Assembly: GCA_964442365.1 (NCBI GenBank)
Contig: CAYTZA010000002.1
Location: 1 to 59,198 of the forward strand
DNA from: an uncultured Candidatus Saccharibacteria bacterium
GTDB lineage: Bacteria > Patescibacteriota > Minisyncoccia > Phycocordibacterales > DAORIS01
DNA: 59,198 bases
Direction of reading: 5' to 3'
Of this stretch, positions 2,600-29,700 are shown one piece after another. The position numbers and the translations under genes are program-made. Numbering within the stretch: the stretch's first letter is position 1; the number at the start of each line of letters is the position of its first letter. The notes under the pieces were generated by a model, which did not search any database, was not told where the DNA came from, and saw nothing but the letters and a program-made list of their open reading frames with translations.

Positions 2600-3052
2600 T
2601 TACTCAAATAAGCTATCAATCACAGCTTTTACATCCTCACCACGAGCTTTTCCCTTGAGTTCTTTCATGATAGTACCCATAAAAACACCAGCTTTACTTT
2701 TGTCAGTAATACCGAGCTCTTCTTTACGAGTAGATACGATTTTTTGTATATCTTCACGACTCATCATTTCAGGAAGAAAGGTTACAAGTACTGCAAGTTC
2801 TGCTTTTTCACTTTCTGCAAGATCTTCACGATTTCCTTTAGTAAATTGTTCTATAGAATCTTTTCTTTGTTTAACAGCACGTTCGATTACTTTTATACAA
2901 TCTTCATCAGATAGTTCTTCTTGTGGTGGGCGTTTCTGCGCAACTAATTCGTTTGTAAAACCTGCTAAAAGGCCACGTAATACTAAAAGACGCGTAGCTT
3001 CTTTTTTGAGCATAGCGTCTTTGATTTGATTTTTGATGTCTGTTTGGATCAT
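2600..3052 (-). CDS. GatB/YqeY-domain protein
   Basis: MIQTDIKNQIKDAMLKKEATRLLVLRGLL... and C-terminal KAGVFMGTIMKELKGKARGEDVKAVI are typical of YqeY. Confidence 0.85.
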   Translation of the reverse strand: MIQTDIKNQIKDAMLKKEATRLLVLRGLLAGFTNELVAQKRPPQEELSDEDCIKVIERAVKQRKDSIEQFTKGNREDLAESEKAELAVLVTFLPEMMSREDIQKIVSTRKEELGITDKSKAGVFMGTIMKELKGKARGEDVKAVIDSLFE

Positions 3053-3147: not shown

Positions 3148-3804
3148 TCAGAGTTCAACTTCCACTTTATTTTGGGGATTCAGAATTATGTCCCGAATGT
3201 TTTCGTCTAAGCTGTTGTTGCGGTTATGTGTAACGACATACCTGCCTCCTTTGTATTCTAAGACAGAACCAATAGGATATTTCGAAGCATCTCTCTCGAA
3301 CAAAGATATGTTCATGTTTTTAGAGCATTCGTCTGTGATGGCCAAATGTAGTCCAAATTCCAGTACTCCCCCGTTCATAGAATCTCTTTCAATTCTGCTT
3401 ATGACAGAGAGGGGAATTTTTTCTCCAAAAGTAGGACTTGTGGACCAAAAGAGAGGAAATAATCCCTGTAGCCCTATCATGTGTACAAAAGAAAACTCAT
3501 TGCTGGGGTCATTCTCTGTGCTTAACCAGGCGTTTACATTTTTCATCGCCATGCGGTGTTCAGGGTCTGACTTTGGTTGCTGAAGTGCTTTACATATGTT
3601 CAACCAATGCGGAACAAGGAGTTCTTTCCTGTTGTTTCTAACAATCATCTCTGCGATCTGTTGGATAAGTGGGTTGTCAGGATTCGCCAGTTGGCGAACC
3701 ATCTCTTCAGAACCACCTAGTGCCTCCACCCGCCTAACCAGGTTAGTGATGATCGACATAACAAGTCCCAAAATGGACACAATAGAGGACGTAGACTTGG
3801 CCAT
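3148..3804 (-). CDS. Hypothetical protein (218 aa), moderately GC-rich
   Basis: ORF runs to 3837, but ATG 3804 has AGGAG 8 nt upstream while ATG 3837 has no SD. No family recognised. Confidence 0.65.
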   Translation of the reverse strand: MAKSTSSIVSILGLVMSIITNLVRRVEALGGSEEMVRQLANPDNPLIQQIAEMIVRNNRKELLVPHWLNICKALQQPKSDPEHRMAMKNVNAWLSTENDPSNEFSFVHMIGLQGLFPLFWSTSPTFGEKIPLSVISRIERDSMNGGVLEFGLHLAITDECSKNMNISLFERDASKYPIGSVLEYKGGRYVVTHNRNNSLDENIRDIILNPQNKVEVEL

Positions 3805-3978
3805 TGTAAGGTCTCCTGATTTGGGCTCATCTCTCATTTCAGTAACACGCTGAAACCCCAGACGAGCCAGTCAAAGAACTATTTACAGTAGAGCACGTTT
3901 TAATCAAGTAGTCAATTTTGATCTGTGTATATAAAATTTCAATATGAAATTAGGCTCTATATAAGATATACTATATAC

Positions 3979-13458: not shown

Positions 13459-13488
13459 TTGACAAAATAGGGTAAAGGGTGCTATAAT
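13459..13488 (+). promoter_or_regulatory. Consensus sigma-70 promoter for CDS 13537..13995
   Basis: TTGACA (13459-13464), 18-nt spacer, TGcTATAAT (extended -10, TATAAT 13483-13488). Confidence 0.75.
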
Positions 13489-13536: not shown

Positions 13537-13995
13537 ATGCCTTTTGCAACATTCGCCGCAGCTCTTGTTATGTTTACTTCGCCTCTGTTGAATAGTAGCA
13601 ATACTCTTTCAGCAGTGACCACTGTAGCTCATTCATCAACTGCCTCAGAAACGGTACTTCAGGTATCAGTATCTAATTCAGATGAAAAAATCCTTACGGT
13701 AAAAGATACCGTTCATGCGTATTACAAGGAGACTCCTATTCTTGCTAAAATTGCATTCTGTGAATCAAGCTTTCAGCACTACACTAAAGATGGTCAGGTT
13801 ATCCGCGGTAAGGTAGATAGTCGTGACGTTGGTCTTATGCAGATCAATGAAAAGTATCACCTTGAAACATCACTTAAACATGGTTTCGATATCTATACGA
13901 TAGAAGGAAACATGGCATATGCTGAGTGGTTGTACGAACGACAGGGTACCGCACCTTGGAATGCTTCTGCTCCATGTTGGAGTCAATCAGTCTAA
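13537..13995 (+). CDS. Secreted lytic-transglycosylase-like (SLT/lysozyme-like) protein
   Basis: Signal-like N-terminus. FCESSF...DVGLMQINEKYH matches the SLT E-S...GLMQI signature. Confidence 0.7.
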   Translation: MPFATFAAALVMFTSPLLNSSNTLSAVTTVAHSSTASETVLQVSVSNSDEKILTVKDTVHAYYKETPILAKIAFCESSFQHYTKDGQVIRGKVDSRDVGLMQINEKYHLETSLKHGFDIYTIEGNMAYAEWLYERQGTAPWNASAPCWSQSV

Positions 13996-25790: not shown

Positions 25791-27188
25791 CTATTTCTTT
25801 GGTTTGAGAGTGATACCAAGTTCGAGAAGTTGCTCGGGTGTAATCTCTGCGGGTGAGTCCATCATAAGATCCTTTCCTTCTCCTGTTTTTGGAAATGCTA
25901 TAACTTCACGAATATTTGGTTCGTTCTCTAAAATCATCATTAGTCTATCAAATCCCCAAGCTATACCGCCGTGTGGAGGAGTTCCTGATCGAAAAGCCTT
26001 CAACATATGTCCGAAGTTCTCCTCGATTCTCTCCGATGCATATCCCATGATTTCAAATACTTTAGTAAGGGCTTCTGGTTGATGATTACGAATACTTCCC
26101 CCACCGATTTCATAGCCATTGAGCGCCACGTCATATTGTGTGGTAAGGATCTCACCAATCTGTTCTTTATTCATAAGCCAAGGAAGATGTTCTGGTTTTG
26201 GAGCTGAAAAAGGATTATGTGTAAATGTCCAGCCACCTGTTTCTGTCTTCTCAAAGAAAGGAAAGTCTATAACCCAACAGAAAGCTAAAAGATTGGGATC
26301 TTCTTTGTTAGTACGTAGATCTGGCTTGTCGTTTCCATATTTTTCCATAGCCTCTTTGTATGAAAGTCGAGGAAATGGAATTTCTTGTATTGTTTTATGT
26401 GGATAGAGAGTTTTTACTATATTGATTAAAAGTTCTTCGTTTAAACGCATAACATCTTCGCGCACAACGAAACTCATCTCAAGATCTAGCTGTGTAAATT
26501 CTGGTTGACGGTCTCCACGAGTATCTTCGTCTCGAAGGCACTTGGCAAATTGATAATATCTTTCAAAACCTGCAGTCATGAGGAGTTGTTTGTATTGTTG
26601 TGGAGATTGTGGAAGAGCATAAAACTTTCCCTTCTCTAATCGTGATGGTACAACGTAGTCTCTTGAACCTTCTGGAGTTGACCGCGTAAGGAGCGGTGTT
26701 TCTATTTCAGTAAATTTCTGTTCAGTGAGTTGATTGCGGATAAGTTGTTGTACTTTGTGACGATTACGAATAGTTTTCTGTAATCGTGTACGACGTAAGT
26801 CTATGTATTTATATCGAAGACGTACTTCTTCATTGACCTCTTTTCCATCGGTTTGTATATCAAAAGGTGGAGTTTCTGTTTCGTTTAGTACCTTTATCGA
26901 CAAAATTTCAAGCTCTATAGATCCGTTTGTTTTATCAGCCTGTACGTTTTTATCAGGTCGTTTGTTGACTTTACCTTGTACTTCTACGATCCATTCTGGA
27001 CGAACTTTAGTACCTACTTCATGAGCTTCTTTTGCTCCAGGTAAGATCACACCCTGTACAGTTCCTGTCATGTCTCTGAAATCAAAAAAGATTAGCTTTC
27101 CTTGATCTCTACGTACGTCCACCCAGCCTTTGATGGTAACTTCTGTACCAATTTTATCTGCAAGCTCCCCTATATATATTCGTTCCAT
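25791..27188 (-). CDS. aspS: Aspartyl-tRNA synthetase, bacterial type but lacking the GAD insertion domain
   Basis: FYALPQSPQQYKQ, QPEFTQLDLEMSF, and GGSIRNH...GFDRL. GNDKPDLR is followed almost directly by WVIDFPFFE. Confidence 0.93.
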   Translation of the reverse strand: MERIYIGELADKIGTEVTIKGWVDVRRDQGKLIFFDFRDMTGTVQGVILPGAKEAHEVGTKVRPEWIVEVQGKVNKRPDKNVQADKTNGSIELEILSIKVLNETETPPFDIQTDGKEVNEEVRLRYKYIDLRRTRLQKTIRNRHKVQQLIRNQLTEQKFTEIETPLLTRSTPEGSRDYVVPSRLEKGKFYALPQSPQQYKQLLMTAGFERYYQFAKCLRDEDTRGDRQPEFTQLDLEMSFVVREDVMRLNEELLINIVKTLYPHKTIQEIPFPRLSYKEAMEKYGNDKPDLRTNKEDPNLLAFCWVIDFPFFEKTETGGWTFTHNPFSAPKPEHLPWLMNKEQIGEILTTQYDVALNGYEIGGGSIRNHQPEALTKVFEIMGYASERIEENFGHMLKAFRSGTPPHGGIAWGFDRLMMILENEPNIREVIAFPKTGEGKDLMMDSPAEITPEQLLELGITLKPKK

Positions 27189-27243
27189 AATTCTTACTAT
27201 ACTAGCAGACAATCTATCGTTTTTCCACATTCAAAATTTTAAT

Positions 27244-27271
27244 TTGACATGATATGTTCCGCGAGTATAAT
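27244..27271 (+). promoter_or_regulatory. Near-consensus sigma-70 promoter of the sRNA next to DUF3800
   Basis: TTGACA (27244-27249), 16-nt spacer, TATAAT (27266-27271). There is no plus-strand ORF downstream. Confidence 0.65.
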
Positions 27272-27275
27272 TTGT

Positions 27276-27342
27276 GGACTGATTGGCAAGTAGGCGCGAG
27301 CCACGACCCAGTCTAGAAAATAACGGGCTCGTCCCGTTTTTT
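27276..27342 (+). ncRNA. Candidate about 65-nt sRNA convergent with, and 9 nt from, the DUF3800 gene
   Basis: Consensus promoter, then helix UGGACUG/CAGUCUA enclosing GGC-GCGA-GCC (GNRA loop), then terminator ACGGG-CUCGU-CCCGU plus U6 (27323-42). Confidence 0.6.
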
Positions 27343-27350
27343 CGTGCTTA

Positions 27351-28088
27351 TTAAGGAAGTTTGTAGAATGTTTTATTTTGATCTACTGTAATAATTTTAT
27401 TTTTTAGTATGTTGCATATTTCGTATTCATAGGAATTAGCTACACTCATCTGGTCGCCCTCTTTTTGTAGGCATTGTTGTGTAGCAGGCCATGCAAAGAT
27501 ATCTGCCAGTTGTGTTTCGATGTCGTGGTTATTTTTACTAACAAAACTAATTGCGGTTAACATTTTTCTTATTTTTTGTGATGTTAAAGTATTGCATCCA
27601 TGCGATAAATAGTAGATATATCTACGATAGAACTCAATATCTTTACCACCGTTTGATTCCATTATAATTTGCCCTTTCTGATTTTTAATTGTTGTAAGAA
27701 ATGACAAAAATGTTTTTATTATTGTATCAAAAGCAGCAGCTTGTATTTTTTCAGTACCCCACCCTGTTTTTATCGCCTTGTTTTTATCAATAGAAATAAT
27801 GATAATTTTGAAGTGTCCTTGTTCAAGAAATGTGAACAAATCTCTATGAAATTCTTTTTCGATGTTTTGACTGTTGAGTATTGTGAAATCACCTTTTCTT
27901 TTACCTATTTCGGCTGAATGAAATACAATATCTGTACGATTCCAGTATTTAAATTTTATCTGATCCGCCTTAATTTTTAATTGATCTGCTTCGTGTGGTT
28001 TTACGATAATCCCACACAGAGTATAGTTTTTACTATGGTGTTTTAAATCCGCAACCCCACTTTCATCGATGTATAGTTTGTAAGTCAC
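27351..28088 (-). CDS. DUF3800-family protein
   Basis: N-terminal YKLYIDESG and C-terminal ETQLADIFAWPA match DUF3800 hallmarks. GTG start without an obvious SD. Confidence 0.75.
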   Translation of the reverse strand: MTYKLYIDESGVADLKHHSKNYTLCGIIVKPHEADQLKIKADQIKFKYWNRTDIVFHSAEIGKRKGDFTILNSQNIEKEFHRDLFTFLEQGHFKIIIISIDKNKAIKTGWGTEKIQAAAFDTIIKTFLSFLTTIKNQKGQIIMESNGGKDIEFYRRYIYYLSHGCNTLTSQKIRKMLTAISFVSKNNHDIETQLADIFAWPATQQCLQKEGDQMSVANSYEYEICNILKNKIITVDQNKTFYKLP

Positions 28089-28155
28089 CAGGAGTAGTAT
28101 GACTCACTGTGGTTAAACTTTTCGATAAGTTGAAATAAAAAAACGTTAAAACTTA

Positions 28156-29700
28156 CTACTCCTTTGGGCTTTCTTGAGAGAAACTTTTTTGTTCGAGATC
28201 TGTTGGTAATTCGATATAGAATTGTGAACCCTTTCCTTTTCCTTCTGACTCTACCCAGACACGTCCATGATGAGCTTCTACCATTTGGCGGACGATATAG
28301 AGACCGAGGCCTGTACCAGTAGCGTTGACTGCATGTGCATCGTCTGCTCGACTGAAACGCTGGAATAGTTTTGCTTTTGTGGCTTCGTCTACTCCAACAC
28401 CAGTATCGACGATTGATATGAGAACCTTATTGTCCGTTTTATGCTCAATACTAACGACTATAGAGCCTTTAGGGGTGTATTTTATAGCATTGTCCACTAG
28501 ATTACCTACCACTTGTTTAATCTTACCAGCGTCAACTGACACAGAGCACAGATCATCTGGATTTTTAGGTGCAAAAGTAAGAGTGAGTTCTTTTCCGATA
28601 AGGTTTGGTTGTAATTCAGCAACAAGTTGTTTGATTGTTGGTGTAAGGTCAATCGGTGCAAAATCGTATTTCATTTTGCCAAGTTCTATACGAGATATAT
28701 CAAGATAATCTCCGACTACGCCTACTAGATTGTGTGCTGATTTGTACATAATCTGTGCAGCCTCTTTTACTTTATCTGGTATTTCTCCGTATTCACCCTC
28801 GAGTATGAGCGAGGCATAACCTTTGATGGCTGTAAGTGGTGCGCGGATTTGATGTGTGGCAAAGGATACGAATTTAGTTTTATCATCGTTTGATTTTTCA
28901 AGAAATTTCGCGTATCTTCTCCATGCATAGATAAGTACAATAGTAAGAATCGATATGATAGATGTCAGGAATACGATAAATATTATAAAGGGTCTTAGGG
29001 TTTGAGTAGTTATTGTAAAAAAATCGTCAGCTTTAATGTCTGTCGCAAGTATTGCAACCACGTTGTCGTTCTCGTCTTTTATTGGGGCATAGCCTGTAAT
29101 AACGGTTCCGTATTCATCTGTATATAGATCTTTACTAGTTAAAGGGCCATTGTAAGCTTCAAAGGCTTCAGGAATATCTACAGCTTCGGGATATGGTTGT
29201 CCAGGCCACTGAAGCTTGTCTGGTCCATCTGGTTCTATCTTCCCATCACGATTCACGTCAACATATCGAGACGGATCTCCACTTGTGTTTGCATTGGGAT
29301 CAATAGAGTCAGCATCTGCAACAAATTCCATTTGAGTTGGGTCATCTTTTGTTTTTCGAAAGATGTACATAAAAACAATGTCGTCATTACTATACTTTGC
29401 CTTATGGAGTCTATTAACAACCATTGCCCATTCTGGTTTTTGCCAGTCTTCTTCGGTTTGAAGTGCAGAAAGGTTTGAAGGACTTATGTTTGCAGCTGCT
29501 GTAATAGAAATAGTTAAAATCCTTTCTCGAAGATTATCTGTAAGAAGATTAACTGTTCTTTGATAAAGTATTTGAGAAGAAAATATGATGATAGTAATTG
29601 AAATAAGTAAAATTACAATACCAATCCAAATAGGACCTTTTATTTTTATAAGTATTTTTTTAATAGGTTTTATCATATAAAGTATTTTTATATTATACAT
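28156..29700 (-). CDS. Sensor histidine kinase (TM - Cache-like extracytoplasmic domain - TM - HisKA - HATPase), no cognate response regulator nearby
   Basis: H-box FATHQIRAPLTAIKGY, N-box DNAIKYTPKG, DTGVGV, GTGLGLYI. ATG 29700 overlaps the upstream stop by 8 nt (alternative ATG 29676). Confidence 0.9.
   Translation of the reverse strand: MYNIKILYMIKPIKKILIKIKGPIWIGIVILLISITIIIFSSQILYQRTVNLLTDNLRERILTISITAAANISPSNLSALQTEEDWQKPEWAMVVNRLHKAKYSNDDIVFMYIFRKTKDDPTQMEFVADADSIDPNANTSGDPSRYVDVNRDGKIEPDGPDKLQWPGQPYPEAVDIPEAFEAYNGPLTSKDLYTDEYGTVITGYAPIKDENDNVVAILATDIKADDFFTITTQTLRPFIIFIVFLTSIISILTIVLIYAWRRYAKFLEKSNDDKTKFVSFATHQIRAPLTAIKGYASLILEGEYGEIPDKVKEAAQIMYKSAHNLVGVVGDYLDISRIELGKMKYDFAPIDLTPTIKQLVAELQPNLIGKELTLTFAPKNPDDLCSVSVDAGKIKQVVGNLVDNAIKYTPKGSIVVSIEHKTDNKVLISIVDTGVGVDEATKAKLFQRFSRADDAHAVNATGTGLGLYIVRQMVEAHHGRVWVESEGKGKGSQFYIELPTDLEQKSFSQESPKE

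Follow-up and report, generated by a model that had tools for sequence, protein, structure and literature searches.

The window analysed here, namely the whole of a 59,198-nucleotide stretch from an uncultured Candidatus Saccharibacteria bacterium (contig CAYTZA010000002.1 of assembly GCA_964442365.1), carries on its minus strand a gene for a DUF3800 protein, with a histidine kinase gene upstream and aspS, the gene for aspartyl-tRNA synthetase, downstream on the same strand. Against the 3' end of the DUF3800 gene abuts a convergent, plus-strand gene for a small RNA (sRNA), and an initial annotation of the sequence had proposed that the protein and this dedicated sRNA form a single module. The elements of the locus are as follows:

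27244–27249 (+): -35 box of the sRNA promoter, TTGACA; 30 of 50 homologous loci have this hexamer unchanged at the corresponding place

27266–27271 (+): -10 box TATAAT of the sRNA promoter, separated from the -35 box by a 16-nt spacer

27281–27313 (+): conserved hairpin, matching covariance model R1 and displaying covariation

27314–27321 (+): A-rich linker UAGAAAAU that joins the conserved hairpin to the terminator; a similar ..GAAAAA.. linker occurs in type-A relatives

27322–27342 (+): intrinsic terminator AACGGG-CUCGU-CCCGUU with its U-run, terminator-like on both strands; equivalents occur in type-A relatives

27351–28088 (-): DUF3800 gene, 245 aa, with its stop codon at 27351–27353; Pfam PF12686, E=1e-10

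The promoter had been described as near-perfect and as pointing at no open reading frame (ORF). It matches the sigma-70 consensus at 12/12 positions and is the sole such match (TTGACA-N16-TATAAT, 27244–27271) in the region from 24 to 31 kb, and the ORF list of the window holds none of at least 40 aa that starts downstream of it. Perfect TTGACA-N16–18-TATAAT sites number 2 in the 59-kb window as against 0.09 expected from shuffles; the second, TTGACA-N18-TATAAT at 13459–13488 (+), precedes an ordinary 152-aa ORF (13537–13995). Judging from the -10 box, transcription of the sRNA would begin at about 27278. The plus-strand RNA spanning 27272–27345 folds with an energy of -25.2 kcal/mol (z=-2.3 versus shuffles), and the minus-strand fold of the sRNA region brings no gain over shuffles (z=-0.9). 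The terminator was correctly placed at the outset, both in its hairpin and in its end at 27342, except that 8 nt rather than 9 separate it from the DUF3800 stop codon. The claim that it is bidirectional also holds, since it is called on both strands, and the hairpins of three of the related RNA variants described below (B–D) serve both strands too; that the element at 27322–27342 also ends the DUF3800 mRNA is thus supported. A small ORF within the RNA was considered and rejected: the 23-codon TTG frame in the window is unconserved, other variants have in-frame stops, and the substitutions are of the kind that compensate pairing.

In the conserved hairpin, an outer helix is formed by the pairing of GAUUGG (27281–86) with CCAGUC (27308–13). 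Inward of this lie an internal loop with CAA (27287–89) facing GAC (27305–07), the pairs G27290:C27304 and U27291:A27303, a bulged A27292 and an apex wherein GGC (27293–95) pairs with GCC (27300–02) around a GCGA loop (27296–99). The apex is as first described, but the outer register then proposed, UGGACUG/CAGUCUA with an AUU bulge, is not the one retained: both registers can be formed by the window sequence, and the comparative data favour GAUUGG/CCAGUC.

These comparative data come from DUF3800 homologues that are for the most part quite distant. The closest relatives of the window protein are only 58% identical to it, and the few with a named source are Minisyncoccia/Paceibacterota metagenome bins, i.e., members of the candidate phyla radiation (CPR)/Patescibacteria. 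Three relatives with 51–56% identity occupy gene neighbourhoods unrelated to that of the window, and on the opposite strand past their stop codons each has a TTGAC box, the sequence UGGCAAGUA-AGC-GNRA-GCU-ACGACC and a terminator, the apical helix being AGC/GCU where the window has GGC/GCC. A protein-profile scan with one genome per species yielded 66 loci, whose titles mostly name CPR/Patescibacteria lineages; the remaining labels (Gammaproteobacteria, Bdellovibrionales, Pseudomonadales, Methanosarcinales and plain bacterium) we take to be products of mis-binning. The 3' flanks of nearly all of these 66 loci contain a convergent promoter, a hairpin and a U-run.

Conservation and covariation of the RNA beside DUF3800 homologues, which the initial annotation had named as a test of its proposal, were both found. 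In an alignment of 45 sequences (A2), 98% of the pairs are standard, as opposed to 78% in shuffles and 24–41% in slid registers, figures that lean high because the seed was chosen by a filtered scan demanding pairing, just as a further alignment (A3) was fitted to the covariance model. Such pairing-based selection has no bearing on the compensatory changes, which fall at homologous positions anchored by sequence: double changes occur at 9/11 pairs, with the equivalent of U27291:A27303, for instance, being U:A in 19 sequences, C:G in 13 and A:U in 11. RNAalifold, with no structure supplied to it, predicts exactly the same fold, and eight loci missed by the pairing-based pre-scan also retain the pairs. 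The structure can further be assigned to a strand. On the strand opposite DUF3800, G-U/U-G pairs outnumber A-C/C-A pairs by 32 to 4, and only on that strand do the loops read GCGA, GAAA and GUAA.

The association of this RNA with DUF3800 is strict. The covariance model R1 was searched, with E up to 1, over the window and 69 further loci (70 sources, 468 kb, both strands), and gave 60 matches, one per locus, in 60/70 sources, every one of them at the 3' end of a DUF3800 gene, with zero matches elsewhere in the 468 kb on either strand. The window match (27281–27313; 29.4 bits, E=5.5e-5) is the sole one in the window, and six further loci have a related hairpin of type E at the equivalent place. 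The DUF3800 homologues bearing an R1 RNA are 33–58% identical. The arrangement is convergent in 59/60 R1 loci, the single co-directional case being L014, where the sRNA gene (3771–3870, +), with its hairpin at 3807–3840 followed by a terminator, has its own promoter, the -35 box of which overlaps the DUF3800 stop codon.

The same association emerges when the search begins from the RNA. A degenerate type-A pattern run over 241 million metagenome records gave 13 matches, 11 of which have a convergent DUF3800 homologue 40–60 nt downstream. Another, L087, is a chance match inside coding sequence, and the only RNA-like orphan found is in L082, where a full-length type-A-like hairpin (1491–1523, +; 37.7 bits) lies about 240 nt past an ORF with a Fic domain (HPFIDGNGRTGR) on a 1986-bp contig that has no DUF3800 gene. 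Altogether, at least 70 further contigs of uncultured CPR/Patescibacteria contain the RNA–protein pair, and we regard the RNA with high confidence as a real gene dedicated to DUF3800.

Phage carriage of the module was considered and rejected, for IMG/VR, searched with three RNA patterns and the protein profile, held no module in its viral contigs and returned only chance matches in GC-rich coding sequence, together with one orphan core. This is a 25-nt exact match to the type-B core on the phage contig IMGVR_UViG_3300001580_000121 (L091 6926–6953, +), situated in an intergenic gap after a helix-turn-helix gene, with no DUF3800 gene, TTGACA promoter or U-tail; it may have been left behind by recombination, as a scar, or serve the phage as a decoy. 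Further afield, on the Shinella plasmid NZ_OZ000540.1 (L094 2217–2325, -), an alphaproteobacterial DUF3800 with 24% identity has on the opposite strand past its stop a TTGACA box, two hairpins and a U-run, along with a sub-threshold match to BjrC68 (2219–2288), from which it may be that the convergent layout is general for the DUF3800 family.

Five sequence variants of the hairpin, A to E, can be distinguished among the 3' flanks of the homologues. The window has variant A, in which the terminator is separate from the conserved hairpin. Variant B reads CUGGUGAGUGAGCGYGAUGCCACGACCCAG-U7, variant C CUGGGGAGCGAGCGUGAUGCCGCGAGCCAG-U6 and variant D ACGAGGGAGAGACCGUAAGGCUCGAGCUCGU-U5, and variant E reads RGGA-AM-GAGC..GCUC-AM-UCYC, followed by ACAAAA and a terminator of its own. 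A common architecture unites A–D: an outer helix, a 3x3 internal loop of the form 5'-N-R-A / 5'-R-A-N, a 3-bp G-N-G / C-N'-C helix, a bulged A, and a 2–3-bp helix capped by a GNRA or GNGAU loop. Judged by its sequence, the 3x3 loop can form tandem sheared purine-A pairs. The RNA is almost wholly helical, with a leader of only about 3–12 nt and no single-stranded guide segment, and those positions that are unpaired are conserved, including an A at alignment column 9 in 45/45 seed sequences as well as the bulged A. The tandem purine-A loop, the bulged A and the GNRA-type loop together resemble a candidate surface for recognition by a protein. Resemblances to better-known folds were set aside by eye: the conserved helix-8 bases of signal recognition particle RNA are absent, the AGUA does not face a GA(A/C) beside the apical stem as in a sarcin-ricin loop, and there is no 3-nt bulge flanking tandem G-A pairs as in a K-turn.

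The flanking signals are as regular as the hairpin itself. The promoter hexamers of the window are retained in relatives, the best sigma-70 match reaching at least 10/12 in 35 of the 50 loci with enough upstream sequence and TTGACA being exact in 30 of them; the -10 box stands 13–21 nt from the hairpin core, with a mode of 18, across these 50 loci. A U-run comes directly after the hairpin in B–D and after a second, terminator hairpin in A and E. Because of this promoter at a fixed distance and the U-tail after the hairpin, the RNA may be seen as an independent small transcription unit, predicted to be about 45 nt in B–D and about 65 nt in A, including the window. The hairpin of B–D is flanked by an A-run on its 5' side and a U-run on its 3' side and lies -1 to 8 nt from the stop codon of DUF3800, which suggests that it doubles as the terminator of that gene.

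When the proteins are arranged in a neighbour-joining tree, the clusters of loci coincide exactly with the RNA variants while the genes on either side differ, and hence RNA and protein diverge and travel together. In a set of 110 ORFs immediately next to the module in 57 loci, type I restriction-modification supplies the commonest Pfam families, namely HsdS with 9, HsdM with 8 and HsdR domains with 5–6, the remainder being housekeeping genes such as ychF, alaS and recA. The order is hsdS-[module]-hsdR in L018 and HsdM-like methylase-[module]-hsdS in L026 and L031; a neighbour with ResIII/RE_endonuc domains is found in L035 and one with UvrD in L051. DUF3800 is preceded in most loci by a gene of the same orientation, usually with no more than 100 nt between the two. 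The recurrence of the pair across CPR contigs, often in restriction-modification operons, points to a real two-part module, and with the linkage in 60/70 sources, the RNA-first result of 11/13, the covariation, the position of the promoter and the agreement of the variants with the protein tree, the original proposal of a DUF3800 protein with a dedicated small RNA is strongly supported by the compared sequences. The restriction-modification setting, in organisms with such tiny genomes, points to defence, and the function of the module is thus probably defence-related.

As to the protein itself, its assignment to DUF3800 in the initial annotation is upheld by the Pfam match given above. Homologues are abundant: HMMER over 1.84 billion cluster representatives returned 194 at E<=1e-30 and 3015 at E<=1e-3. 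Six residues of catalytic type, D8, E9, E144, D150, Q193 and D196, are invariant in 35 relatives and include the DE and QxxD motifs described for DUF3800 (PMC7736814). A very confident AlphaFold2 model of the window protein (pLDDT 95, pTM 0.91) has RNase HI as its best, though weak, fold matches in the PDB (TM 0.33/0.49, E about 1e-2), and the BFVD search ranks a phage DUF3800 protein first (TM 0.83), with RNase H and RuvC-type folds next. In the literature, too, analyses with AlphaFold and RaptorX have assigned an RNase H-like fold to DUF3800 (PMC10910872, PMC7736814), and the window protein is a predicted nuclease of the RNase H-like (DEDD-type) kind. Members of the family are described as part of retron type VII and as accessory proteins of CRISPR V-A2/VI-F (PMC7736814, PMC10910872, PMC12669027).

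In several loci, the protein gene is broken. Two, L028 (CAA to TAA) and L044 (CAG to TAG), have independent premature stops at the codon for the invariant Q43, L038 has a TAG near residue 144, and L072 has an internal deletion that leaves 92 aa (in all four the DUF3800 ORF starts at 3001). All four retain a high-scoring RNA, which is the pattern to be expected if the protein is the harmful partner.

DUF3800 genes have been known to adjoin structured RNAs since a survey that described eleven such motifs, DUF3800-I to XI (Weinberg et al. 2017, PMC5737381), rather than the I to X named in the initial annotation, which had left open whether the present RNA is one of them. No variant has a match in Rfam 15, which includes DUF3800-I (RF02969) and DUF3800-IX (RF02968), the two confirmed by name. 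At gathering thresholds, no RNA family was found over the sRNA in the window or 20 loci, and with E up to 10 there was none for window positions 27100–27500, for 9 loci covering A–E, or on 181-nt stretches around the type B and type D RNAs. The same searches recovered tRNA, tmRNA and LOOT RNA in these loci, and hence the search works; the LOOT RNAs (RF03000, about 74 bits) lie 0.6–1 kb from the module (L066 4859–4975, -; L010 4435–4545, -).

The sRNA has what groups the DUF3800-associated RNAs, namely a covarying conserved structure and a consistent association with a PF12686 gene, and as set apart by the Rfam 15 models it is a further structural class of these known but unexplained RNAs; identity with a published DUF3800 motif that is absent from Rfam is unlikely. 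Like DUF3800-I to XI, which also differ from one another in structure, it is a structured RNA beside a DUF3800 gene, outside the 5' UTR, and such RNAs often end in an intrinsic terminator. Unlike them, it is a single hairpin of 33–36 nt that, within the loci sampled, is restricted to CPR/Patescibacteria; with rare exception it stands convergent to the gene at the latter's 3' end, and most variants use it as a bidirectional terminator too.

A few further observations concern the immediate surroundings of the window gene. A 9-bp inverted repeat, GGAGTAGTA / TACTACTCC (28091–28099 and 28154–28162), flanks the gap between the stop of the histidine kinase gene and the GTG start of DUF3800, and no obvious Shine-Dalgarno sequence lies ahead of that start. 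On the other side, aspS probably starts at 27188 (MERIYIGEL) rather than at 27230, in which case its promoter must fall inside the sRNA gene; a weak minus-strand promoter match, TCCACA-18-TATCAT (27278..27249), stands there back-to-back with the sRNA promoter.

How the two parts might work together can be considered against this background. The reading that we tentatively adopt, and to which we would give somewhat less than an even chance, is that the RNA is a protein-binding antidote of DUF3800, the latter being a latent nuclease. The consensus promoter would yield the hairpin RNA in excess, and this rigid hairpin, with its tandem purine-A loop, bulged A and GNRA-type loop, would be bound by the DUF3800 protein. 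The bound RNA would inhibit rather than activate the nuclease and so keep it latent, as in type III toxin-antitoxin (TA) or abortive-infection systems. If transcription were shut off, e.g., by a phage, the short RNA would decay and a putatively toxic nuclease would be freed. The pair would travel as one unit, often lodging in restriction-modification operons as a second line of defence. Among the functional examples offered in the initial annotation, those of an antitoxin-like RNA, an RNA-bound enzyme and abortive infection appear to fit best, whereas an RNA-guided role is unlikely, since nowhere does the RNA offer an unpaired stretch of sufficient length for a guide.

A wider claim may be built on this antidote reading: that an RNA antidote and a latent RNase H-like nuclease make up a new minimal mobile abortive-infection module, consisting of one 45–65-nt hairpin and a 245-aa enzyme, which is widespread in CPR/Patescibacteria and repeatedly nested in type I restriction-modification operons, and the logic of which extends to the eleven DUF3800 RNA classes of 2017. 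Taken as a whole this is possible but doubtful.

Several points weigh against the antidote reading and what is built on it. The protein has no sequence match to any solved structure, and none of the defence-protein models of PADLOC-DB 2.0 match it (0 families at E up to 1). Most loci, that of the window with its histidine kinase and aspS among them, lie in housekeeping surroundings. The pairing percentages lean high for the reasons of seed selection and model fitting given above. The Rfam DUF3800 models also gave no match on four distant DUF3800 loci (the Shinella plasmid and three phages), so that the Rfam searches lack a positive control where the DUF3800 models are concerned. The present RNA also departs from the classical type III antitoxins, whose tandem repeats precede the toxin gene and undergo processing by the toxin. 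Finally, the convergence in 59/60 loci and the use of the hairpin as a terminator in B–D are also predicted by a cis-antisense or a terminator role.

The first of these roles deserves to be taken seriously, even if we consider it improbable as the sole explanation. In the manner of type I TA systems, the convergent sRNA would overlap the 3' end of the DUF3800 mRNA and lower its expression through a duplex and RNase III-type cleavage or through transcriptional interference exerted by its strong promoter. The nearly invariable convergence is what this would predict, as is the gap of -1 to 8 nt to the stop codon in B–D, where one hairpin with its A-run and U-run serves both strands; moreover, the sRNA has a consensus promoter, yet the sigma-70 scan found no good promoter directly upstream of the window DUF3800. 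A purely antisense role is weakened, however, because the RNA of L014 is co-directional with the gene and has its own promoter, and because the conserved hairpin of variant A is on the far side of the shared terminator, such that in the window the overlap would span the terminator only. It is weakened further because antisense pairing places no constraint on an RNA's own fold, yet here the helices covary and the unpaired bases and GNRA loops are kept on one strand, i.e., both fold and unpaired bases are under selection. Pairing in trans with the DUF3800 start region was also tried and rejected, as the complementarity of the RNA to the 5'/translation-start region had no excess over shuffles in 16 loci (z -1.5 to +2.2), the duplex energies being no better. 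An antisense effect is compatible with protein binding, and as an addition to the latter it is a live alternative.

A comparable, rather low probability attaches to the converse of the antidote, that the hairpin is a required cofactor or scaffold which, as the stable subunit of a ribonucleoprotein, would activate or target the nuclease. The evidence from linkage, covariation and co-diversification favours this equally with the antidote, and the DUF3800-I motif was judged to bear features of RNAs with sophisticated biochemical function (PMC5737381). Against it, the RNA is almost entirely paired, its leader of about 3–12 nt offering no obvious guide or sensor segment, and it is kept where the protein gene is disabled, which fits an antidote somewhat better. 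Activator and inhibitor are not truly separated by the present evidence, and the cofactor is likewise a live alternative.

It is very improbable that the element is merely a conserved bidirectional terminator, or a stability element in the 3' UTR of the DUF3800 mRNA, with incidental promoter hexamers. Such a role would account for the hairpin being the terminator in B–D and for the terminator-like sites called on both strands in the window; it would leave aside the promoter, whose distance is fixed in most loci and whose TTGACA is exact in 30/50, the 32:4 ratio of G-U to A-C pairs and the GNRA loops that place the structure on the strand opposite DUF3800, and the separate terminator that A and E bear besides the conserved hairpin. 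Ordinary terminators, moreover, do not retain the sequence of an internal loop across proteins of 33–58% identity. Lastly, a leader or regulatory element of aspS on the minus strand, which its place within the 160-nt gap upstream of that gene might suggest, was rejected as almost certainly wrong, since in relatives the RNA tracks DUF3800 into unrelated contexts where aspS is not a neighbour, the minus-strand fold is no better than shuffles and there is no T-box or other Rfam match.

Returning to the antidote reading, parallels might be struck with several known systems, none of which it matches in full. The type III TA systems (ToxIN, CptIN, TenpIN) would be one such analogy, as they too combine a nuclease with a small structured RNA made in excess, and the RNA–protein binding and the release upon cessation of transcription proposed here would be alike; they are associated with phage defence, and the same may be proposed for the present module. 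In those systems the antitoxin consists of direct repeats in tandem, encoded ahead of the toxin gene in the same direction and set off from it by a terminator, and the toxin cuts it into units. In contrast, the present RNA is one hairpin with no repeats, convergent with and downstream of the gene and with its own promoter, and the predicted fold of the protein is RNase H-like as opposed to the Kid/CcdB/BECR-like fold of type III toxins. In layout, the module resembles the type I TA systems of Bacillus (TxpA/RatA, BsrG/SR4), with convergent genes, 3' ends that may overlap through a shared bidirectional terminator, and a strong sRNA promoter. In Bacillus the toxin is a small peptide of the membrane, and base pairing is the sole mode of action of the sRNA; the DUF3800 product, by contrast, is a soluble-looking alpha/beta enzyme-like protein of 245 aa, the RNA structure is under selection and one locus is co-directional.

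A further parallel lies in the setting. The anticodon nuclease genes prrC and rloC nest in type I restriction-modification loci, and the present module similarly places the gene of a predicted, putatively latent nuclease between hsd genes (hsdS-[module]-hsdR, hsdM-[module]-hsdS). However, PrrC is restrained by restriction-modification proteins rather than by an RNA, the protein families are unrelated and, unlike PrrC/RloC, only a minority of the module loci are inside restriction-modification operons. Likewise, in retron type VII and among the CRISPR V-A2/VI-F accessories, the same protein family stands beside a non-coding nucleic acid as part of defence systems (PMC7736814, PMC10910872, PMC12669027). 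No reverse transcriptase, CRISPR array or cas gene was found beside the module in the window or in the sampled loci.

The adjacency of eleven unrelated RNA structures to one protein family, which recurs in retrons and CRISPR loci, has been a puzzle since 2017. The window adds a twelfth DUF3800 RNA class, the simplest so far, with a 33-nt hairpin core, evident candidate elements for recognition and a clean promoter and terminator, and with a protein partner that can be modelled very confidently. The module might thus be seen as a convenient minimal system in which to study three things, namely the binding of the RNA by DUF3800, the effect of the RNA on the nuclease, be it restraint or activation, and protection by the pair against phage. 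Few non-coding RNAs and defence candidates have been catalogued in CPR bacteria, and the module adds a gene family to them. If the antidote reading is true, the same logic would explain the purpose of the eleven orphan DUF3800 RNA classes of 2017.

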